DNA of 31,946 bases from positions 1-31,946 of the forward strand of contig JBHLRS010000034.1 of the NCBI GenBank assembly GCA_048882325.1. Direction: 5' to 3'. Shown here piece by piece: positions 1 through 20,046 of this stretch; position 1 is the first letter of the stretch; the number at the start of each line of letters is the position of its first letter. The notes under the pieces were generated by a model, which saw only the letters and a program-made list of their open reading frames with translations, ran no database searches and was not told the origin of the DNA. Position numbers and translations under genes: made by a program. Source of the stretch: Candidatus Thorarchaeota archaeon (GTDB taxonomy: Archaea; Asgardarchaeota; Thorarchaeia; Thorarchaeales; Thorarchaeaceae).

Positions 1-633
1 GGTTTGGCAATCGCAAACACGAATGTTTTGAGGACACCGGACCCATCCTATACAGTGCTCACTGAACAACTCCTCCTATTTGCCAAAGATGCTGAAGATG
101 GTCTCAGTTTGACAGTTGATCAACTCAAGAGAGGTAGAAGCTATCAATGGGGGAACCTCGTGCTTGCTGATGAAGACAGCATGCTGGTCATCGAAATCGC
201 GGGTAATGACCATTCTATAGAGTGGTCGGAGCGCAGGGCACTTCGAACAGGTCATCATATAATGTTAGATACAGAACCGACTTTGCGCGCTGAAGAAAGT
301 GGATATGATAGTTCTGTCAAACGTGTTGAACGAGGATATGATCTCATTCGTCAGGCATCATCATTAAAGGATGTCTTCGCATTATTGAGGGATCACAATG
401 AAACAGCAGGTCAAGAGAGTCTCTGCTGTCATGCTGTGAAAGAAGGTGGTTATGCAACATTCATGAGCTACCTAATCGAAATAGACCACAGTACAGATTC
501 AGGAAAACCAAGGATCGTTTTTCATGTTGCAAAGGGAAACCCATGTCAATCTGAGTTCACTGCAATTCCGATTCTATTCCCAGCTGATGAAGACATTATG
601 AATCGTGCCATTCAGCTCTATCCGAAAGGCTAG
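1..633 (+). CDS. Partial (5'-truncated) C45 peptidase / acyl-CoA:6-APA acyltransferase-like Ntn-hydrolase
   Basis: Frame is open from base 1 (GLAIANTN). The GLAI-x-N, 'N-L-V-L-A-D...IE', 'R-T-G-H', 'S-x-x-R', 'L-R-D-H...L-C-x-H' and 'G-N-P-C' segments follow the order seen in C45/AAT proteins. The catalytic Cys would lie outside the window. Confidence 0.7.
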   Translation, partial: GLAIANTNVLRTPDPSYTVLTEQLLLFAKDAEDGLSLTVDQLKRGRSYQWGNLVLADEDSMLVIEIAGNDHSIEWSERRALRTGHHIMLDTEPTLRAEESGYDSSVKRVERGYDLIRQASSLKDVFALLRDHNETAGQESLCCHAVKEGGYATFMSYLIEIDHSTDSGKPRIVFHVAKGNPCQSEFTAIPILFPADEDIMNRAIQLYPKG

Positions 634-1073
634 AGCAGGATCCATGCTCGGAGGAACCAGTAGAACCCGAGAACGAATGCAATTATCCATACTCCGATTG
701 TGAGAAACATGAGAGGACGGGTCCTCTTCAGAAGCTTCAGTGGCATACCACGACGAATCAAGAATAGAGTTACTAATATTGCACCAAGTACAATTGCTAA
801 AATACCCACGATATCATGAGCAATTTGATACCAGAACACAACTGGATTGTTTAGCATAAGAGAAAGTCGTCCTATCGCACTAGGTATCATCCAGAAGCCG
901 ACTGTAAGAATATGAATCAATACCACAAGATAGACAGCTTGATGATGGAGTCTAAAATTCATCCTGCTTGCGCCATATCGCCAACCAATTAGCAGAGTAA
1001 TTAGGACTATTATCTCTAAGATAAGTACCAGATAAGGAATTGGAATACCCAGTATTTCTTGCATTATTTTCAT
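630..1073 (-). CDS. 4-TM membrane protein, DUF420-like, with His residues at or within the helices
   Basis: Four hydrophobic segments; His in LHHQAV, LIHIL and AHDIVG. AAGGAG lies directly after the upstream stop, and its spacing favours an alternative ATG at 1064. Confidence 0.6.
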   Translation of the reverse strand: MKIMQEILGIPIPYLVLILEIIVLITLLIGWRYGASRMNFRLHHQAVYLVVLIHILTVGFWMIPSAIGRLSLMLNNPVVFWYQIAHDIVGILAIVLGAILVTLFLIRRGMPLKLLKRTRPLMFLTIGVWIIAFVLGFYWFLRAWILL

Positions 1074-1079
1074 CTCCTT

Positions 1080-1808
1080 TCATTGGGTTTCTATCTCACT
1101 CACACTCCCTCTGGTGGTGAATAGACTAGACTTGAGAGTCGTTCCTCTACCTTCATGAGCAGAAACGATGGCAGACCCAATCATGCCCCAAGGGCAGAAT
1201 CGAACATTCAGATTTTGGTAAGCATCGGAGTCATGAATTCGCGAGAACGCGCATCCATTAGCGGCTACAGTAATCTGACCGTCCTTTGCCTTAGCACTGG
1301 CGAATCTCACAAATCCATGATCATGAATGTAATCGGCATATCCCTTGAGCTTCTCGGCAAGTGACACTTTCGGGTCGAGCAGGTATTCAGGCAGGTAAGC
1401 AGCTAAAATGTCTGATATTCGAATAAACACGTAGTCTTTGATAGCCGCATCACCCAAAATATCTATGAAAACACTCTCATACCCAAAGATTGCGGCACGA
1501 AGTTTCCAGATTTCCTCCATTGTCAAGCCCTTCGTTGACCCAGTGGCTTGCGCTTCATCGACTTTCTCATGGAACTCAGTCAGGAATTCCTTGAGCTCAA
1601 CAACAAGTGCGTCTGAGGATTGTTGCTCAGAAAAAATCTCAGGTAGGAACTCTTGAACATAGTAAACCATCCGAGGCAAAACATGTTCATCCAGAACATT
1701 GGGACCAATGAGTTCAGTTCCCACAGCTTCGTAGGCATCGAGAATCCCCATGTAGAGAAACACTGCCTCGAGCTGCTGACCATCTTGAGATTGCATTTCT
1801 GTGCTCAT
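1080..1808 (-). CDS. V4R/MetOD1/Bet3-fold-like protein with a duplicated N-terminal helical unit
   Basis: C-terminal 'ITVAANGCAFSRIH...FCPWGMIGSAIV...RGSVSEI' fits the C-x-F...C-P pattern of V4R-like domains. The internal repeat is visible. Start chosen at ATG 1808 (the ORF extends to 1826). Confidence 0.55.
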   Translation of the reverse strand: MSTEMQSQDGQQLEAVFLYMGILDAYEAVGTELIGPNVLDEHVLPRMVYYVQEFLPEIFSEQQSSDALVVELKEFLTEFHEKVDEAQATGSTKGLTMEEIWKLRAAIFGYESVFIDILGDAAIKDYVFIRISDILAAYLPEYLLDPKVSLAEKLKGYADYIHDHGFVRFASAKAKDGQITVAANGCAFSRIHDSDAYQNLNVRFCPWGMIGSAIVSAHEGRGTTLKSSLFTTRGSVSEIETQ

Positions 1809-1852
1809 GATAGAACCAGCCTGCATAGGTCATCGTTGCTTATAATTCTCGT

Positions 1853-2878
1853 CTATGACGACATCTCGTGTAACTGGAACATAGTCAATTCACTTGTACT
1901 CTTCAGAGTAATACTAGAAGTTCCAGGACCTGAAGTTTTTGCAAAGAAACGGGTGTAAGGTCTCCGCGTGAGTGACTTGAACATGGAATCAATGTTCTTG
2001 ATGAGTGAAGAGATAAAAATCACTGCTTTCTGCGAAATCTCCTTTCCGATCTTCTCACTTACACGACCATTCGTTGCAAAGATGACCTTTCCAACCATGG
2101 TGTCATCAGATGTCAGTGCAATCTCTGTTGCAAACCCCTCAGCATAGCAGATTGTCGTCGCAGCTTCGTATACATTCTCTTTTGGAATTCTCATAGCTCC
2201 GCTAGCAAGGCTAAGAAGACGACCTCCATTACAAGCAACAACAGTATAGTCATCTGACTCGACTACAAAGTATGAGTAATCATGACCAATCCCTAGACTC
2301 TCAAAGGTCTTTTGTAGCGTCGAATGAACCAATAAGAACTCACGAATTTGATTCTTTTTGAACAACGGTTTGGGTCTTGAGAAACTAGCGATGAGTGAAT
2401 TATTTGTTGCATCCACAACGAATGCTAGAGGAATATCATGTCGGTTCTCAAGTGTCTGGATGACAATTGATGATAGTTTTTCGTTACTGAATAACTGAGT
2501 GTTGATTCGGTCAATCTGATCCCTAATCTTCTCTTTCTCATCTGGTGGGAGTTGCATTCCATCAACCTCAGGAAACTTAACTCTGAGAAGATGGTTCATG
2601 ATTCTCTCCATACCATCTCGAGCAAGATTTTCAGGAGCTTTCCGATCAAAAACACCCACCAGTATTTTTTCTGAGTTGGGAAGACGTAGGTATAGGAAGT
2701 ACTCAGTTTCTGTAGAAAATGAATCGAGAGCATCTGAACGTGCGTGAGTACTGAAGTCCTGTATTGCTGAGAAGAATCCAGATGAAAGGACTGCTTTATC
2801 ATCATCACTAGTTGATTGATCACTGCTATAGTGGAACTGCATTACACCTCTGTCAATCAGAAATATCTCTCTAATCAT
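1853..2878 (-). CDS. Longin + roadblock/LC7 + roadblock-like multidomain protein (Asgard eukaryotic-signature-type)
   Basis: N-terminus MIREIFLIDRG...AVLSSGFFSAIQDFS is the typical Asgard longin-like signature. The second domain starts 'DIPLAFVVDATNNSLIASF' and the third 'VGKVIFATNGRV'. ATG 2878 is preceded by GTGAG; an alternative ATG is at 2905. Confidence 0.65.
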   Translation of the reverse strand: MIREIFLIDRGVMQFHYSSDQSTSDDDKAVLSSGFFSAIQDFSTHARSDALDSFSTETEYFLYLRLPNSEKILVGVFDRKAPENLARDGMERIMNHLLRVKFPEVDGMQLPPDEKEKIRDQIDRINTQLFSNEKLSSIVIQTLENRHDIPLAFVVDATNNSLIASFSRPKPLFKKNQIREFLLVHSTLQKTFESLGIGHDYSYFVVESDDYTVVACNGGRLLSLASGAMRIPKENVYEAATTICYAEGFATEIALTSDDTMVGKVIFATNGRVSEKIGKEISQKAVIFISSLIKNIDSMFKSLTRRPYTRFFAKTSGPGTSSITLKSTSELTMFQLHEMSS

Positions 2879-2998
2879 CTCACTGTCGGAATACAATTTT
2901 GCCATAAGAAGAAAACGGTGGTAAAATGGACATGAAAAAGGGTGTGAAAAGACTATTAACATGGGAATGACTCGATATAGCCTTTGGAGGAAATCTCA

Positions 2999-3496
2999 GT
3001 GAAACCAAGGAAAGTCTGTTTCATCACTTTCATGATATTCGCGTTGATATTAATATGTCAGCCTACAAAGGTTTCAGCACATAACCCAACATCGGTAACA
3101 CTCGAATATGATTCTGGAACTGAAATATTGACTGTGGTAGTAAATCATGGTGTACCAGCAGGTAGTCTACCGAGTCATTACATCTACAATGTCGTGGTCG
3201 AAAAGAACTCAGTTCAAGTGGTATCGAGGGATTATGTCAGCGAAAACAACACAGTTTCTGGCTTGACTGATACGTTTTCTGTGTCAGCTGTTGATGGTGA
3301 TGTTCTCAAGGCTACAGCCCGTTGCACTCAGGCAGGGATAAAGTCAGGTGAGATAACATTGACTACCACCACTACAACTACAGATACTGGTACCACAACT
3401 CCACCTCCCGGTGCACCTACAACACTATACATTGCGATTGCAGTTGTGGCCATTGGAATTGTAGGAGTTATTGTTGCGATCTTAAGGCGACGATAA
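2999..3496 (+). CDS. Secreted, C-terminally anchored desulfoferrodoxin/superoxide-reductase-like metal-binding protein
   Basis: GGAGG RBS 8 nt before GTG 2999. Signal peptide ends VSA|H. Motifs HNP, NHG, HYI and ARCTQAG, then a Thr/Pro linker, a TM helix and an RRR tail. Confidence 0.6.
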   Translation: MKPRKVCFITFMIFALILICQPTKVSAHNPTSVTLEYDSGTEILTVVVNHGVPAGSLPSHYIYNVVVEKNSVQVVSRDYVSENNTVSGLTDTFSVSAVDGDVLKATARCTQAGIKSGEITLTTTTTTTDTGTTTPPPGAPTTLYIAIAVVAIGIVGVIVAILRRR

Positions 3497-4792
3497 TCAA
3501 GTAACATCGATTGCACTTTCGGGCTCTTCCTCAAGTGAGAGTGAAACTTCTTTCCTCCACTCGATATCACGCTCTTTGTTTCTGAAGAATCCGTAGAATA
3601 GCGTGATTCCAAGCACGTATAGACCTGAAACTAGCACATAGGGGAGCCGGTAGAGTCCAAGTGCTAGCAACCAGCCACCGATAATGGCTGCAATGGCTCT
3701 CACAAACGAGTCAGCTGATCGAACGACGCCAACAGCTGTTGCTCGCTCCTCCTTCGTGAGTCCCTCCATGAAGAAAGCATTGGAGATGGGTCCAGCCATA
3801 TTCATCAATACATTTCGTGTCACATATCCAATGATTGCTAGTTGTAGTGTGTCGGCGTAAGCTAAAGTTAGCAAGAAGGGTACCGAAAGCGCTTCCGTGA
3901 GTACTACAGTTCGTACTTTCCCGATTTTATCAGCCAAAGCTGGGGCTAGAAAATTACCAGCTGAGAGGATCAATGTATTAGCACCAAATATGAGACCTAC
4001 AATTTGGGAATCGATAGGAAACTCGTGTGTGAAGAACAGATTGAAGAACATCACAATCATACCTGCACCTAGTCCGACACTGGCTATAGTTAGTGTGTAC
4101 TTGCCAATGAATCCCCAGTTCTTCACATTTCGGATTGCTAACCGGTCATTTGAGGGAGTAGGTGTATCTGTTGTCATTTGAGTGATGAGGAGAATTGCAA
4201 ACGCTGTCGGAATTAGACTAAGCCAAAGAGTATAACGATAGGGAATCACAAAGGATTGTGTGGGAGAGAAACTAAGCCAGTCCACAAAAATCTGGGGCAT
4301 GATACCTCCGACCAAGCTTCCTGCAAACACACCCAACAGCGATACACCTCCACCCACTGCAAAGAGATGAGCACGCTCTTGGTCTGTTGAGATATCTGAA
4401 ACATAGGGAGACAATGCAACATCACGAAAGGCAACGGAGATCCCAAGAAAGACCTGAGATACAAGAAGGCCAACCGGATCGAGAGTTGTATATTGGACAA
4501 CTAGCACACCAAAGGTGACAATGTTTGCGATGAGAATTATCTTCTTCCTACTCGCCCTGTCCGTCATAATACCAGCAATGAATGCAATACCAGCAGACGC
4601 GAACATCGAAATTGAAAGGAAGAAACCAATAAAGTCCTCCATACGACCGGCTTCTTGAAGATAGAGATTGAAGATTACACCACTTATACCCCAGGAAAAT
4701 GTGATCAGAAAGGAGATCGTGATGTACAGTTTTGCATCTCTTCCAAAGAGTTGCAGCTTACCAATGTAGCTAAGCCTCTCCCCTTCGGTCAT
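3497..4792 (-). CDS. MFS transporter
   Basis: About 12 TM; MFS motif A variants GIMTDRASRKK and ALADKIGKVR. Start reassigned to ATG 4792 (GGAGA RBS) because the longer ORF overlaps ltaE. Confidence 0.9.
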   Translation of the reverse strand: MTEGERLSYIGKLQLFGRDAKLYITISFLITFSWGISGVIFNLYLQEAGRMEDFIGFFLSISMFASAGIAFIAGIMTDRASRKKIILIANIVTFGVLVVQYTTLDPVGLLVSQVFLGISVAFRDVALSPYVSDISTDQERAHLFAVGGGVSLLGVFAGSLVGGIMPQIFVDWLSFSPTQSFVIPYRYTLWLSLIPTAFAILLITQMTTDTPTPSNDRLAIRNVKNWGFIGKYTLTIASVGLGAGMIVMFFNLFFTHEFPIDSQIVGLIFGANTLILSAGNFLAPALADKIGKVRTVVLTEALSVPFLLTLAYADTLQLAIIGYVTRNVLMNMAGPISNAFFMEGLTKEERATAVGVVRSADSFVRAIAAIIGGWLLALGLYRLPYVLVSGLYVLGITLFYGFFRNKERDIEWRKEVSLSLEEEPESAIDVT

Positions 4793-4907
4793 GAAATGAT
4801 CTCCAGAATGAATCTTCAGATGTCGGAGGCCTCGTGACTTCCCTATATGCATTGTCAATTGAGCACAAGCACTAAGGCTAAATCGGAGTACTGAGGATTT
4901 CAGAGTT

Positions 4908-5945
4908 ATGAAGACCATTGACCTACGGAGCGACACAATCACCCAACCAACTGATGAGATGATTGAGGCGATAGTTACTGCACACAAAGCTGGAAGATTC
5001 GGGGATGATGTTATTGGTGAAGATGAAGTGGTGAATGAGTTACAGGAGAAAGCTGCAAAGATTCTCGGCAAAGAGGCAGCACTTCTTGTCACCTCTGGTA
5101 CTCAAGGGAATCTCATCTCTCTTTTGGCTCAGACAAAGAGGGGTGACGAGGTGGTTGTAGAGGACAGATCACACACCTTTGTCTTTGAAGGAGGTGCAAT
5201 GGCTTCAATGGGAGGACTCTATCCGAAACCTGTGAAGGGTGAGCGAGGATATATTCTCCCAGAAACCCTCGAATCTGTTATCAGTCCGGATAATGCCCAT
5301 TATGCAAAGACAGCACTTGTGGTGGTTGAGAATACCCACAACTATGCGGGAGGTGCAATAATCCGACCTGAGCAGGTTAAAGCACTCGCAGCAGTGGCAC
5401 ACGACAATGGTCTCAGAGTTCATTGCGATGGAGCAAGATTGTTCAACGCAGCTGTCGCACTGGACATTCCAGCTAAGGAACTAGTTGAGGAAGCGGATTC
5501 TGTTCAAATCTGCCTGAGCAAGGGGCTCTCAGCGCCAGTTGGTTCCATAATCGCAGGAACAGAGGAGTTCATCCACGAGTCTCACCGGACGCGGAAGAAG
5601 CTGGGTGGGGGAATGAGGCAGGCAGGTATCATAGCGGCTCCAGGAATTGTGGCACTTGAGAAGATGGTCAACAGACTCAAGGATGACCATGACAATGCAA
5701 AACTGCTCTACAGCAAAATCAAGGACATTCCTAGCCTGCATATCGAAGAGCCTGAAACAAACATACTGTTTCTTGGCCTCCAAGACCTTACGATTAGTCA
5801 GATGGATCTGTCAGAGGAACTAGCAAAAGAAAACATCAAGGTCTATGGAGGATATGGTGTAAGGACTAGAATGGTAATGAACAGAATGGTAGACCGTGAA
5901 GACGTTGATAGGATATCAACAGCTCTTGAACGGTTGTTGAAGTAA
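4908..5945 (+). CDS. ltaE: Low-specificity L-threonine aldolase (PLP-dependent)
   Basis: IDLRSDT, SGTQGN, ENTHN, HCDGARLFNA, CLSKGL (PLP Lys), RKKLGGGMRQAG. Confidence 0.95.
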   Translation: MKTIDLRSDTITQPTDEMIEAIVTAHKAGRFGDDVIGEDEVVNELQEKAAKILGKEAALLVTSGTQGNLISLLAQTKRGDEVVVEDRSHTFVFEGGAMASMGGLYPKPVKGERGYILPETLESVISPDNAHYAKTALVVVENTHNYAGGAIIRPEQVKALAAVAHDNGLRVHCDGARLFNAAVALDIPAKELVEEADSVQICLSKGLSAPVGSIIAGTEEFIHESHRTRKKLGGGMRQAGIIAAPGIVALEKMVNRLKDDHDNAKLLYSKIKDIPSLHIEEPETNILFLGLQDLTISQMDLSEELAKENIKVYGGYGVRTRMVMNRMVDREDVDRISTALERLLK

Positions 5946-6730: not shown

Positions 6731-8410
6731 TCAAAGTATGTCAGGTGCTTTGTATTCCCCAAACACCTCTCTTAAAACGCCGCATATTTCGCCCAATGTT
6801 GCGTAAACTTTCACTGCATCGATAATTGGGAGCATTAGGTTCGTATCTTTTTCTGCAGCATCACGTAGACCTTCTAATGCCTGCTTAACCAGCTTATCAT
6901 CCCTTTGTGCTCTAACATTTTTGAGATCCTTAAGCTGCTCTCGTTCTGCTTCTGGATTAATCCGGAGGTAGTCAAACTGAGGTTCTTCGTCCACAGTGAA
7001 CTTGTTCACACCCACCACGATTCTCTTTGATTCATCAACCCTTCGTTGGAACTGGTATGCAGCTTCGTGAATCTCACGTTGAATGTATCCCTTCTCAATC
7101 GCAACCGGAGCCCCACCCATGCTGTCGATTTTTTCGATGTATTCCATGGCTTTTGATTCAATCTCATTTGTTAGGTTCTCTATATAGTACGACCCTGCAA
7201 GTGGGTCAATGGTGTCACCGACTCCGGATTCATGAGCAATGATCTGTTGTGTGCGCAGTGCTATTTGTACTGACTCTTCGGTGGGCAGAGAGAGCGCTTC
7301 ATCTCGAGAATTCGTGTGAAGTGACTGTGTTCCCCCTAGGACTGCTTGCAGTGCTTGAAGTGTCACACGAACAACATTGTTGTCAGGTTGTTGCGCAGTT
7401 AAGGTACAACCAGCTGTTTGAGTGTGAAAGCGCATTCTACAAGAACTGTCACTCATTGCCTTGAACCGTTCCCGCATGATTCTGGCCCAGAGCCTCCGAG
7501 CGGCTCGGAATTTGGATACCTCCTCGAGGAAATCACTGTGAGAACCAAAGAAGAATGAGAGACGCGATGCAAAGTCATCAACATCCAGTCCTGCATCTAT
7601 TGCAGCCTGCACATAGGCGATGCCATCCGCCAGAGTGAATGCGACCTCTTGTACCGCTGTAGAACCTGCCTCCCGGATATGATACCCGGAGATCGAGATT
7701 GTGTTCCAGAGTGGCATCTTCTCGCTGCAGAACTTGAATATGTCAGTGATGAGCCGCATTGAAGGTTTTGGTGGAAATATGTATGTACCTCTAGCAACAT
7801 ACTCCTTCAGTATATCATTCTGGATTGTACCCCGCAGCTTATCCATGGGAACTTCCTGCTTTTCAGCCACAGTGATGTACATGGCTAGGAGGACAGAGGC
7901 AGGTGCATTAATGGTCATGGATGTGCTTACCTTGTCTAGAGGAATTCCCTCGAACAACACTTCCATGTCTGCAAGTGAATCAATGGCAACTCCCACTTTC
8001 CCCACTTCTCCCTGAGCTAATATGTCATCAGAGTCATAACCGATCTGGGTAGGGAGGTCAAAAGCTATTGAGAGACCTGTCTGTCCTTGTTCCAGGAGGA
8101 AGTGGAATCGTTTGTTGGTCTCTCTGGCAGTAGCAAAACCACTATACTGCCTCATTGTCCAGAAACGACCACGATATCCAGTTGGTTGAACTCCACGCGT
8201 GAAGGGATACTGACCAGGAAATCCCAAGTCATTCTCGTAGTTCAAGTCTTCTAGGTCTAGCGGTGTGTAAAGACGTTTCACTTGTAGACCAGAGATAGTA
8301 TTGAAATTCTCTTCGCGCTCGGGGAATCTTTTGACAGTCTTTGCAACAGTCTCATCCTCCCACTTCTTTGTAGAGTCACGGAGCTTTGAGTTGTCTCCCA
8401 TAACACTCAC
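6731..8410 (-). CDS. Methylmalonyl-CoA mutase, large (substrate-binding) subunit
   Basis: [59 protein letters not shown] overlaps the meaB stop; alternative ATG at 8401. Confidence 0.95.
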
Positions 8411-9366
8411 CTACTCTCACTAAACAGGAAATCAGCAATCAACCTTTCAGCAACACTATATGGATCGTCTTTTCTAGATGCAATCTTCTTGATGGCGGCT
8501 TCATATTCGGGCTGTCCTTCCAGTTTCTGCCATAACTCCTGCGTTAGCTTGTACTTCATTATTTCCTGCAATTCGTCGCGACTTCGTTTTAGTCCCTTTT
8601 GCTCAAGCTGTCCACTATCTTTCAGGAATTGAAGATGTTCTAGAATTTTGTCCGCAAGCTCTGGAACTCCTTCACCGGATCTAGAATTTGTAAGCAAGAC
8701 TGGAGGACGCCAATCTCTTTCTCGAGGATCTATGTCCAACATCGCATTGATTTCTGTAACCTTTCTCTCAGCTCCAGGAAGGTCCATCTTGTTCACAACG
8801 AAGATGTCTGCAATCTCCATGATGCCAGCCTTGATAGCTTGGATATCGTCACCACTCCCAGGCATGTCAGTGACAATGACAGTATGTGCAATGTCAATGA
8901 CCTCGACTTCAGATTGGCCTGCACCAACAGTCTCAACGAAGATGATGTCTTTGCCAAATGCATCAATAGCACGGACTGCATCAGAGGTTGCTCGAGCCAA
9001 ACCTCCCAGGTGACCACGAGTTCCCATGCTCCGGACATAGACATCCTCATCAAGACTATGCTCTTGCATCCTAATCCTGTCACCGAGTAGCGCACCTCCA
9101 GTGAAGGGACTTGAAGGATCAACGCAGACGATACCAATTGTATTCTGGCGCTCTCGGTACTCAGCTGTTAGTTTAGTGACCAGTGAACTCTTTCCGGATC
9201 CTGGAGGTCCAGTCACACCAATAATGTGGGCATTGCCAGTGTGTTTGTAGAGTTGGATGAGTGCTTCTGTCGCATCACGGTCCTCATCTTCAATAAGAGA
9301 GATGAGTCGGGCTAATTCCCTCCGTTTTCCACTCAATACGCCTTTGACAAGGTCAGCAACGGACAA
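8407..9366 (-). CDS. meaB: Methylmalonyl-CoA mutase-associated GTPase MeaB (ArgK family)
   Basis: GPPGSGKS P-loop, [44 protein letters not shown]. Confidence 0.95.
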
Positions 9367-9389
9367 TGCTAGTTCCTCACATTCAAGAA

Positions 9390-9791
9390 TCAGAGCTTAA
9401 CATTAGCCTTGATGTACTCTACAATCTCATCAAGCGGAGTCCCCGGACCAAAAATGGCTGAAACTCCAGCCTTCTTCAGTTCAGGAATGTCATCTTCAGG
9501 GATGATGCCACCACCCACTACTAGGATGTCATCGATGCCTTCTTTCTTCAGGAGCTCCATGATCTTTGGAAATAATGCATTGTGAGCTCCGCTCAGAATG
9601 CTTAATCCAATGCAGTGCACTCCTTCATCGAGTGCTGCACGGACCACCATTTCTGGTGTCTGTCTCAGACCAGTGTAGATGACCTCCATTCCTGCATCAC
9701 GAAGAGCACGGGCGACAATCTTTGCGCCGCGGTCATGACCGTCAAGGCCTGGTTTTGCAACAAGTACGCGAATCTTCTTGGACGAACTCAA
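9390..9791 (-). CDS. Methylmalonyl-CoA mutase small (cobalamin-binding) subunit
   Basis: [10 protein letters not shown] (DxHxxG B12 motif), SILSGAH, GGIIP, FGPGT. TTG start with GAGGTG upstream. Confidence 0.95.
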
Positions 9792-17247: not shown

Positions 17248-20046
17248 TCATTCTGCTGGTTGCTTCTTTCGAACCAAGAATATTACAATTATAACAGCAG
17301 CTGCCACTCCTCCTGCTGCAAGTGCCAGGATGACTGGTGTGTTGTCAGGCACAACTGTAACCACAACGGTGTCGGTCGCTGAGTTCCCACTACCATCGAT
17401 AAAGGTCACAACAAATGTATGATCTCCAATGCTGAGACCGTCAGCAGTTATTGTAACGCTCTCAGAGGTGGAATTCCACATTCCGGACATAACCTCAACT
17501 CCATCCAGATTAACACTGTAACTTGCAGGATCATAATCCTCTGCTATCCATGTGATGTTTCTCCCAACCTGACCTACGACATAGTCGAAGTCATCAGGAC
17601 CACCAACACTTGGTGCGAGTGTATCAGACACAGTCAATGTGAAGAAACCTACAAGCTCGAACCCGTAGAGGTTGATTGCAGTCACCTCTAAGTGATACTC
17701 ACCAAGGTTCAGAAAGACTGCATTTCTGATTGTTCCATCGTCAATTGTGAAGTCAGTGTCGTTCACACGCCAGTCTACAATTGGAGCATAGATTGTCAAT
17801 CCAGCATATCCGAACATCCGTTCAAACTCATCCCCCAACTCGGAAAACAGATTGAAGTCATCAGGTGGATCCCAATATGGAAGAGTGGGATGATAGACTA
17901 GCGGCATCGTGTCGTTGTTATTTCCTAAACCAACAATTGGGTGCCATGTGTCTCCGAATCCGTCTGAGTTGGCATCAACACCGGAATAGTTCGACCAGAA
18001 GTTGTACATGAAGACGGTAGTGGAGCTGTCATCAATTGCATTAGCACCATTATCCTCAAAGATGTTCCAAGTCACATTGGGTCCGATGATACCGCTGAGT
18101 TCGATACCAAAGAGCTCGTTCTCCTTGACGATGTTATGAGAAACCACTCCATCACAACCGATGACAGAAATTCCTCCACTACTCAGAGTAAATGAGTTCC
18201 ATAAAGCGTCAGCCTCACAGTCCCCGAGCAATAGGGAAACACCTTCAATCCCGCTTGTGTTAGTACAGGTATTCCTGATCACAGTACAATTAAATGATTC
18301 AAAAACAACGATTGCATAACCCGCCTGAAGATGGCAATAGTTATCCTCAATGATGATGTCATATGAAAAGGCCTCTACAACAATCCCGTTTAGATTTTCG
18401 ATGCAGGTGTTATCAGTTATGTTGTTCTTTGAGGAGTTCTCTACATAGATAGCGTCGCCGCATTTGGTGAGGTGGTTTCCCTCGACTTTTGAATCGTGCA
18501 CATCACTGAGGTGGATACCAGTAAGGCTACCAGTAGAATTCCTAACATTGTTGTCTAGCACGGAGAAATAGGAACAAGCATAGGCAAAAATGCCGACTGA
18601 ACCATTTGTGATTGTGTTGCCTTCGATTAGACAGTTCGCTGAAGAATCAAATCCGATACTGAAATCCCCACTAAGATTACAATCATTGTCTATAATCTCA
18701 CTATAGTTACTATTTAGTCCAAGGATGTTGTAGAGCGATTGGTTGCAAGTGTTTTTCGATACGGTGCAATATAGCGAGTTATCCAAGTAGATATCAACAT
18801 CAGCTATGCCTTGACCTTGACAAGTGTTGTTCGTGATGGTGTTATGATGAGCGTCGTACCAACTCACAACACCCCCAGCATATATCTTACACGTGTTACT
18901 TGAAACCTCATTATATGAGCTGTTATCTTTAAGTTCAATACAGATGAAACTATTCTCCACGTAGTTGCCAGAGATATAAGAGCTGTTAGAGTTGACCAGC
19001 GCTATGGACCCAAACATGTCCCCTATTCCCCATCCACAATTGTTCTGGCTTATCGTGTATGAAGAACAACCTCCAAGCATGATATCTACATCATTGGCAC
19101 GGCAGAAGTTGTTGATGACCTCATTATCGTGACAGTCCTCTGACAAAATTCCAATACTACCCACCGAAAGGTTGTTGTTGCTGATGATATTGTTGTTACA
19201 ATCAAAATTGAATCTAATTCCATAATTATAGCCAAGTGCTGTATTATTGTTGACCGTGACATCTTCGCAATTCAAGTAGACCTCGATTGCACCTACACAT
19301 CCCTCGCAATAGTTGTCTTCGATTGACGTGAAAACGGATTGTTCTATATGTATTCCCACAAAGCAAGCTGTACAGTTGTTGTTTACCAATGTCGAACTAG
19401 AACAGTCCTCAAAATAGACACCTGCCCAATTGAAGTCATAGAACAGGTTGTCGATGACTGTCAAGTCATCTGAATGGAGTGCAACGACACCTCTCTCACT
19501 GTTCAGAATTGTGCTGTTCTTGACTCGAGCATGTGATACCGATTCCAAATAGACAACAGTTGTTGCATTCGCTGTTAACCAACAGTCCTTGATGAAGAAG
19601 TGAACATCTGTGTTTGTAATGTTGATAGCTGGAACACCTACAGTTGTAGAGTTGATATTCAGACCAGATATTAGGTATGGTTGTTCGACACTTCCCTCAC
19701 CAGGCCAACCTTGCGTATCAAAGTCAGTGTTATTTTCAATTACTACGGGTGCATGAGGAGTGCCGAATGGATCTATATCAGCTGCAATTAATTGTCTGGA
19801 GGCTGGCATTTCGGTTTGCCAAGATCTCCATTGGATTCTAGGCATTACATAATCTGCAGGAGACCAAAGTCTATTTCTTAAACGATCTAGATTGAGTACA
19901 GATATGCGTTCATCCTTGATGTCCGATATCTGAATTTGCGAACGTGCATTGGTCACTTCTGGCACTGAGAAGAGTAGTGTCGTCCCCAACAAAAAGAGAA
20001 GAACCACTATCGAACCTCGGTGCATACTGCTGTATCCCTTTCGCAT
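17248..20046 (-). CDS. Large surface protein with right-handed parallel beta-helix (NosD/pectin-lyase-like) repeats, Ig-like domains and C-terminal TM anchor
   Basis: Signal peptide; cap GWPGEGSVEQPYLISGLNI; many ~22-aa 'GI.l..s.n..i.nN.c' turns; NFWSNY...DANSDGFGD; TM + RKK. Confidence 0.9.
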   Translation of the reverse strand: MRKGYSSMHRGSIVVLLFLLGTTLLFSVPEVTNARSQIQISDIKDERISVLNLDRLRNRLWSPADYVMPRIQWRSWQTEMPASRQLIAADIDPFGTPHAPVVIENNTDFDTQGWPGEGSVEQPYLISGLNINSTTVGVPAINITNTDVHFFIKDCWLTANATTVVYLESVSHARVKNSTILNSERGVVALHSDDLTVIDNLFYDFNWAGVYFEDCSSSTLVNNNCTACFVGIHIEQSVFTSIEDNYCEGCVGAIEVYLNCEDVTVNNNTALGYNYGIRFNFDCNNNIISNNNLSVGSIGILSEDCHDNEVINNFCRANDVDIMLGGCSSYTISQNNCGWGIGDMFGSIALVNSNSSYISGNYVENSFICIELKDNSSYNEVSSNTCKIYAGGVVSWYDAHHNTITNNTCQGQGIADVDIYLDNSLYCTVSKNTCNQSLYNILGLNSNYSEIIDNDCNLSGDFSIGFDSSANCLIEGNTITNGSVGIFAYACSYFSVLDNNVRNSTGSLTGIHLSDVHDSKVEGNHLTKCGDAIYVENSSKNNITDNTCIENLNGIVVEAFSYDIIIEDNYCHLQAGYAIVVFESFNCTVIRNTCTNTSGIEGVSLLLGDCEADALWNSFTLSSGGISVIGCDGVVSHNIVKENELFGIELSGIIGPNVTWNIFEDNGANAIDDSSTTVFMYNFWSNYSGVDANSDGFGDTWHPIVGLGNNNDTMPLVYHPTLPYWDPPDDFNLFSELGDEFERMFGYAGLTIYAPIVDWRVNDTDFTIDDGTIRNAVFLNLGEYHLEVTAINLYGFELVGFFTLTVSDTLAPSVGGPDDFDYVVGQVGRNITWIAEDYDPASYSVNLDGVEVMSGMWNSTSESVTITADGLSIGDHTFVVTFIDGSGNSATDTVVVTVVPDNTPVILALAAGGVAAAVIIVIFLVRKKQPAE

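Follow-up and report, generated by a model that had tools for sequence, protein, structure and literature searches.

What do a longin-type gene, a Bet3-like gene and a small membrane-protein gene do side by side in an Asgard archaeon? The question is raised by a 31,946-nucleotide stretch of DNA from a Candidatus Thorarchaeota archaeon (GenBank assembly GCA_048882325.1, contig JBHLRS010000034.1, positions 1 to 31,946), here called the window, in which three genes, A, B and C, lie next to each other between positions 630 and 2878. An initial annotation read them as a longin/roadblock protein, a V4R/Bet3-like protein and a four-transmembrane (4-TM) protein that might form a TRAPP-like or signalling module. 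Tri-longin Rab guanine nucleotide exchange factors (GEFs) and TRAPP are viewed as eukaryotic inventions assembled from longin and Bet3/V4R components, and what has been reported from Asgard archaea so far are isolated parts. The closest paper describes isolated Asgard roadblock, longin and TRAPPC3 proteins (PMC10933270). No description of the three-gene cassette or of A was found in open-access papers and bioRxiv, including the main texts of recent structure-based surveys of Asgard proteomes; subscription journals lay outside this search.

Gene order and retention of the three genes

The interval from 630 to 2878 is filled by three co-directional open reading frames (ORFs) on the minus strand. 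Gene A (1853-2878) encodes a predicted tri-longin protein of 341 residues, and its start, MIREIF at 2878, is that of its orthologues, with an offset of 0 in the alignments of 30 loci. Gene B (1080-1826) encodes a protein of 238-248 residues, depending on which of the candidate starts at 1826, 1808 and 1796 is used; its annotated length in databases is 238 residues. Gene C (630-1064) encodes the 144-residue 4-TM protein. An alternative extent of 630-1073 is less likely, given that a GGAG ribosome-binding site lies about 9 nt upstream of the ATG at 1064 and that databases give 144 residues. The choice of starts sets the A-B gap in the window at 26, 44 or 56 nt and the B-C gap at 6 or 15 nt, and the gaps of about 44 and 6 nt first reported for these co-directional genes are those obtained with the B start at 1808 and the C start at 1073.

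The three genes are kept together elsewhere. One genome per prokaryote species was scanned, which gave 33 loci encoding B in other genomes, and the order and strand of A, B and C are retained in about 30 of them, so the proposed adjacency recurs in several Asgard lineages. Their record names assign these loci to Thor-, Frey-, Hod-, Heimdall-, Hermod-, Kari- and 'Prometh'-archaeota, and the named homologues of A, B and C are from Asgard metagenome-assembled genomes (MAGs), chiefly of Thorarchaeota. Two loci, L027 and L028, are near-identical across A, B and C yet are named Thorarchaeota and Heimdallarchaeota, respectively; MAG record names are therefore unreliable for judging how the cassette is distributed. 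In distant lineages each flanking ORF is unique to its locus, and because these flanks are unrelated the trio is taken as the conserved unit. The adjacency of A, B and C is far beyond chance. Pairwise distances of the three proteins correlate (r ~0.8), and mean pairwise identity across lineages is 61% for B, 40% for A and 43% for C. A conserved fourth gene was sought without success, as none is universal: a Zn-ribbon gene after C and a superoxide reductase (SOR)-like gene before A are each found in one Thor clade.

Within the phylum, B was found in 36 of 301 sampled genomes, and full-length A lies on the same contigs in about 35 of the 36, assembly-edge cases aside. The carriers belong to four GTDB families (f1, 28/76; f14, 4/11; f19, 1/6; f22, 3/21). 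The C family is more widespread, with members in 60 of the 301 genomes, divergent paralogues included. Here and below, absence from MAGs means that a gene was not found in those searched.

Among relatives, the site between the C45-type acyltransferase gene (1-633) and the threonine aldolase gene (4908-5945) occurs in four states: the full set, as in the window; C with the SOR-like gene and a major facilitator superfamily (MFS) gene, without A-B (G103); the MFS gene only (G093); and none of the five genes (G197). In G137, similarly, C lies directly beside the SOR-like gene, and A and B are missing. The same pattern is found with different flanks in another Thor clade, in which G167 and G149 have the order DinB, C, Zn-ribbon, where their relatives have DinB, A, B, C, Zn-ribbon. 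In a maximum-likelihood tree of C, the C-only genes nest within cassette-linked clades, and well-supported branches force at least four state changes. Therefore, the A-B pair has disappeared on several occasions (repeated gain would be less parsimonious), with C staying in place. The reverse state, A-B without C, was never seen wherever sequence was available. A-B is thus an obligate pair that depends on C, and C is independent of A-B. This one-way dependence is in line with a membrane protein to which a cytosolic module docks, or which that module reads out or serves.

Three observations on gene content can be added. Positions 1-4900 of the window are a gene-content hot spot within the genus, as judged by comparison with loci L036, L038, L042, L043 and L044. 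The A orthologue of a same-genus genome (G120:C101:4520-5539) has an in-frame TAG, for which decay or a sequencing error is possible. In L022 (L022:5178-5968), A and B lie about 790 nt apart, as against A-B spacers of 25-140 nt in the other loci.

The spacers also bear on transcription. In nearly all loci B and C are -1 to 18 nt apart, usually with a GGAG, and the longer A-B spacers contain an A/T-rich, TATA-like box that is conserved in most Thor loci. In the window this is TTATAA at 1840-1845, on the coding (minus) strand, and most Thor loci have a matching box (AAATATAAG, or ATTTTAG) some 35-50 nt before the B start. The conservation of the box suggests that it may act as an internal promoter for B-C, as had been proposed at the outset for this same TTATAA, and that A is perhaps transcribed apart from B-C. 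A second candidate promoter lies in the divergent intergenic region 5' of A (2879-2983), which contains a TTAATA box at 2954-2959. Part of this box and of its surroundings is kept in front of C in G137 and G103, which have C without A-B.

Predicted folds of the A, B and C proteins

Scans with Pfam and NCBIfam returned no model that names A, B or C of the window, and all statements on the folds of A and B rest on predicted models. The classes named in the initial annotation agree with what these models and the alignments suggest: the A model has three longin/roadblock-type domains, B adopts a V4R/Bet3/H-NOX-superfamily fold in its model, and C has four hydrophobic segments.

The AlphaFold2 model of A (pLDDT 82, pTM 0.76) points to a canonical longin domain (LD1, 2486-2878), a roadblock domain (LD2, 2138-2485) and a lamtor-type domain (LD3, 1865-2098), in that order and all on the minus strand. 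LD3 was delimited by DSSP, with pLDDT 82-96, and has a weak profile match to dynein roadblock LC7 (E 0.02, residues 257-309). This succession, with a canonical longin as LD1, a roadblock type as LD2 and a lamtor type as LD3, is also the one by which the tri-longin domain (TLD) family is defined (PMC8833172, PMC6864590). In whole-chain Foldseek searches the top matches of the A model are Mon1, Ccz1, HPS1/4, Fuzzy and Inturned (E 1e-9 to 1e-7, probability 1.0). The top structural match of LD1 is Trs23. LD1 also aligns with Fuzzy in VIA-align (model residues 8-140 with Fuzzy 8-142), and the helix at 121-139 aligns as its last helix.

The predicted A protein shares the three-domain order in one chain with the TLD subunits of the Rab GEFs Mon1-Ccz1 (Rab7), Fuzzy-Inturned of CPLANE (Rab23) and HPS1-HPS4 of BLOC-3 (Rab32/38), and it differs from them in several respects. 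TLD subunits are about 400-700 residues long, whereas A has 341 and lacks loops or inserts. In the A model the segments 92-107, 121-139 and 141-153, between the LD1 strands and LD2, are helical, and an additional strand is not seen there; a separate alphaX-betaX linker, in which alphaX completes LD3 of TLD proteins, is not evident from the model. Eukaryotic TLD complexes lack V4R-fold and 4-TM partners, and A has both. A appears to be laid out like a TLD Rab-GEF subunit and may work like one, but it cannot be counted as a member of the family, since it has neither a paralogue for a heterodimer nor a Pfam match.

The search results for A are as follows. The TLD Pfam models (Mon1, Fuz_longin_1-3, Intu_longin_1-3 and CCZ1) gave no match to the A protein of the window at E <= 1, and when 24 orthologues were scanned at E <= 10, one matched Fuz_longin_1 marginally (E 0.079). 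The Sedlin and Sybindin Pfam models match neither A nor its orthologues, and profile searches of the PDB returned nothing beyond weak roadblock LC7 matches at LD3. A search of 1.84 billion representatives with the A profile returned 60 proteins; the full-length ones have about 340 residues, those with a named source are archaeal, and none of the 60 is a longer, eukaryote-type relative. Elsewhere in the genome of the window, a 435-residue open frame weakly matches LD1 of A (G000:C66:3334-3483, E 9.5e-4). A Ras-like GTPase gene lies about 1.5 kb from this frame (G000, C66:4997-5473), and the two are perhaps a longin-GTPase pair.

For B, the predicted model points to a fold of the V4R/Bet3/H-NOX superfamily, with structural matches to PoxR, MopR, DmpR, MJ1460, BcsD, VirS, Bet3, Thor-TRAPPC3, YslB and H-NOX. 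The best Z is obtained with H-NOX (7.2, 163 residues aligned, B residues 26-248), and Bet3 matches B no better than H-NOX or YslB do. At the sequence level, the V4R profile PF02830 matched none of 30 B family members, the Bet3 Pfam model did not match B, and no PDB chain with a sequence match to B was found. ESM Atlas returned unnamed clusters and the sub-threshold leads ATC_hydrolase (0.87) and RdxA_C (0.88). The genome encodes a classical V4R gene separate from B. Compared with V4R-type domains and Thor-TRAPPC3, B has about 90 additional residues at the N-terminus and is obligately paired with a tri-longin gene.

Four residues of B, C192, H198, C211 and H224 (1155-1253, minus strand), are invariant in 30 sequences, along with N190, S200, Y203, R209, P212 and W213. 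In the model this cluster follows beta2 and lies at both ends of the next helix, parallel to the Zn site of Thor-TRAPPC3 and PoxR, which hold a structural Zn in the equivalent region (PMC10933270). Invariance and position make the Cys2His2 set a candidate metal- or cofactor-binding site. The putative ligands are Cys2His2 and not Cys4 or Cys3Glu, in comparison with Thor-TRAPPC3 (PDB 7yh2; PMC10933270) and with V4R, H-NOX, YslB and BcsD proteins. H-NOX domains are marked by a proximal His on helix F and by a Y-x-S-x-R motif for the haem propionates; H198, S200, Y203, R209 and H224 of B are invariant but are not in the canonical Y-x-S-x-R spacing.

For C, alignment shows that H40, H41, M59, H83 and M119 are invariant. 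By the positive-inside rule, which would place the Arg/Lys-rich loops of C in the cytosol, H40/H41 and M119 would lie near the cytoplasmic face of the membrane, and M59 and H83 would be close to its outer side. ESM Atlas look-alikes of C carry DUF420 (score 0.94, 25 of 30 matches), and DUF420 is found in 17-28% of the members of C look-alike clusters (scores 0.93-0.94). PF04238 matches three of 20 C orthologues (best E 4.3e-5), with no match to the C protein of the window, which falls below the family threshold. C shares its small size, its four transmembrane segments and the presence of conserved His with CtaM, the DUF420 protein of Bacillus subtilis and Staphylococcus aureus. CtaM is needed for haem-copper oxidase assembly and has recently been proposed to export or reduce copper (PMC13344008). 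A role for C as an oxidase assembly factor was considered and rejected: COX1 (PF00115) was not found in the 93%-complete genome, while control genomes do match. Because no such oxidase was found for C to serve, the known role of CtaM cannot apply to C.

Possible roles of the cassette

Longin and roadblock domains are standard small-GTPase platforms, as in TRAPP, Mon1-Ccz1, Ragulator and MglB. The reading tentatively preferred here is that the cassette is an optional platform, docked on the membrane and gated by a ligand, for a small GTPase whose gene lies elsewhere. The membrane component would be the small, DUF420/CtaM-like protein C, which has four transmembrane segments and a His/Met cluster near each membrane face, probably binds metal or haem and is able to exist alone. 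A and B, always encoded directly upstream, would form an obligate cytosolic pair, in which B is the V4R/Bet3/H-NOX-fold subunit that binds a ligand or metal and A is the tri-longin platform, probably a homodimer. A might then offer a platform for docking or exchange to one of the roughly 30 Ras-like GTPases of the genome, and the activity or membrane recruitment of A would depend on the ligand state of B and C. The genes, their predicted folds, synteny and co-occurrence and the dependence of A-B on C are shown by the data, whereas for A-B-C we infer complex formation, metal or ligand binding and GTPase coupling. In favour of a GTPase platform are the predicted TLD domain order of A, the TLD proteins at the top of its Foldseek matches, the ligand-binding superfamily to which B appears to belong, and 33 Ras-family matches in the genome, which are candidate clients. 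The linkage data count for this reading as well: the synteny of A, B and C amid unrelated flanks, the co-occurrence of A and B, the short B-C spacers, the correlated distances of the three proteins, and C being present wherever A-B was seen and sequence was available.

None of these Ras-family genes is on the contig, and the G3E GTPase MeaB is the only GTPase in the window, in keeping with the initial annotation, which saw no small GTPase in the window. A search in cis, in which a profile built from 20 of the Ras-like proteins of the genome was run on the flanks of the 33 loci, gave a match to one flank ORF. MglB-MglA, the Streptomyces conservons and Ragulator-Rag usually have a GTPase adjacent or fused to the roadblock protein, whereas none is linked here. 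According to one structural study, genes of Asgard archaea for longin, roadblock and TRAPPC3 proteins do not as a rule share operons with GTPases (PMC10933270).

Along with the near absence of a GTPase in cis, several findings weigh against a GTPase platform. The cassette is dispensable, given that A-B is present in just 8 of the 24 genomes of the genus to which the window belongs, and none of the 68 genomes of f9, the largest sampled family, was found to carry it. Although the individual domains of A match those of the tri-longin subunits in Foldseek, their mutual arrangement differs, so that the A model does not superpose on the solved subunits (TM-score ~0.25, root mean square deviation ~20 A). 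TLD proteins form heterodimers of paralogues, whereas A is single-copy, with one full-length family member in the genome of the window and one in almost every other carrier; a heterodimer in the style of Mon1/Ccz1 is therefore impossible. Homology of A to eukaryotic GEF families was not found at the sequence level in Pfam, PDB and large profile searches, the single orthologue that approaches Fuz_longin_1 aside. Finally, a metal or redox role that involves no GTPase is in keeping with the invariant residues (His, Met and Cys), the link of C to DUF420 and the SOR-like gene next to the cassette.

That last point leads to the main rival, ranked a close second and to be regarded as a serious possibility, namely that the cassette senses or handles metal or haem, most plausibly copper, without any GTPase. 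C would be the membrane metal or haem protein, B a cytosolic Cys2His2 protein that binds metal or tetrapyrrole as a sensor or chaperone, and A no more than a scaffold that tethers B to C. The resemblance of C to DUF420/CtaM, with the proposed copper export or reduction by CtaM (PMC13344008), favours this explanation, although DUF420 membership is weakly supported for the C protein of the window and no haem-copper oxidase was found in the 93%-complete genome. The invariant H40, H41, M59, H83 and M119 of C point the same way, as do C192, H198, C211 and H224 of B, which lie where Thor-TRAPPC3 and PoxR hold Zn, and the binding of small ligands or haem by relatives of the V4R and H-NOX kind. The secreted SOR-like neighbour, with its predicted N-terminal His, stays with C when A-B is lost, which is consistent with a metal-related role, but this gene is limited to one clade, and no metal-responsive regulator, transporter or oxidase is conserved beside the trio. 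The lack of a GTPase in cis is as expected for such a system; tri-longin and roadblock platforms, on the other hand, are known chiefly as GTPase partners. The two explanations are compatible, as metal or haem sensing could be coupled to a GTPase. If the cassette is a metal or redox sensor, then trafficking-type folds serve a non-trafficking role among the closest relatives of eukaryotes, which would temper the interpretation of 'eukaryotic signature' domains.

A more specific form of GTPase platform, which is rather unlikely, is that A descends from the archaeal ancestor of the tri-longin Rab GEFs. A would be recruited to the membrane as a homodimer and serve a Rab-like GTPase of Asgard archaea as its exchange factor, B would mark a common origin of TLD and TRAPP complexes, and C would stand in for recruitment by lipid or Rab5. 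If this is true, the common TLD/TRAPP origin predates duplication into heterodimers and separate complexes. The cassette provides a compact single chain with a predicted TLD order, an obligate pairing with a Bet3/V4R-fold protein and a small membrane partner. Given that the proteins are small and that natural presence/absence variants exist, the way in which GEF platforms came about before eukaryotes is directly testable.

A true proto-TRAPP, in which the longin domain of A would join B, as a Bet3 homologue, in a catalytic core of TRAPP type that acts on a Rab1-like GTPase, is improbable. The obligate pairing of a longin gene with a Bet3-fold gene speaks for it, and the cassette links longin and Bet3/V4R-superfamily folds genetically, as does the TRAPP core (Bet5/Trs23/Trs20 with Bet3/Trs31/Trs33). 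However, the longin part is one three-domain chain and not a set of separate, single-domain subunits of the Bet5, Trs23 or Trs20 type. B, moreover, matches H-NOX and YslB as well as Bet3 and differs from the Bet3 family by an extra N-terminal helical half, being H-NOX-like overall. The cassette adds a membrane subunit, no TRAPP Pfam family was matched, and a separate classical V4R gene is present in the genome. Of the TRAPP-like module proposed initially, the folds and the synteny are supported and membership of TRAPP is not, and a GTPase link in cis is limited to one of 33 loci; the ligand-sensing relay offered as its alternative may well apply. The adjacency might also mean nothing, with A, B and C as functionally unrelated genes or as cargo of a mobile or defence islet. 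This is disfavoured and hardly credible: the gene-content hot spot in which they lie is outweighed by the order and strand kept across distant lineages with unrelated flanks, the tight co-occurrence of A and B, the lack of any PADLOC match that would indicate a defence system, and the lack of an integrase, transposase or flanking repeat in the flanks examined.

Neighbouring genes and the rest of the window

The other genes of the window belong to ordinary metabolism and include threonine aldolase, methylmalonyl-CoA mutase with MeaB and a B12-binding subunit, CoA transferases and others. The large subunit of the mutase, MeaB and the B12-binding subunit are encoded by an ordinary operon on the minus strand (6731-9791). 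A 932-residue protein with NosD-like and right-handed beta-helix repeats is also encoded on the minus strand (17248-20046; Pfam NosD, 3.8e-38). The NosD family name mentions periplasmic copper binding, and a link of this protein to the cassette is not established.

Two neighbours of the cassette are lineage-specific. The SOR-like gene (2984-3496, plus strand) lies outside the conserved core and encodes a protein that is predicted to be secreted, with a stalk of Thr/Pro and a transmembrane anchor at its C-terminus. Cleavage is predicted between VSA and H, which would leave an N-terminal His. The gene adjoins A, in divergent orientation, only in L001-L007 and L024, which belong to one Thor clade, and the L024 orthologue matches Pfam Desulfoferrodox with an E of 1.6e-4, just over the cut-off. 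In the C-only genomes G103 and G137 the gene remains directly beside C, and its product perhaps binds metal as a partner of C.

In a second Thorarchaeota clade, a gene for a Zn-ribbon protein of about 120 residues (CPVC...CLDC) lies about 70 nt downstream of C on the same strand. It occurs in L008-L022 (e.g., L013:7237-7602, plus strand), L045 (4038-4394) and L046 (4041-4358). The protein has no Pfam match, and its gene stays with C in genomes without A-B.

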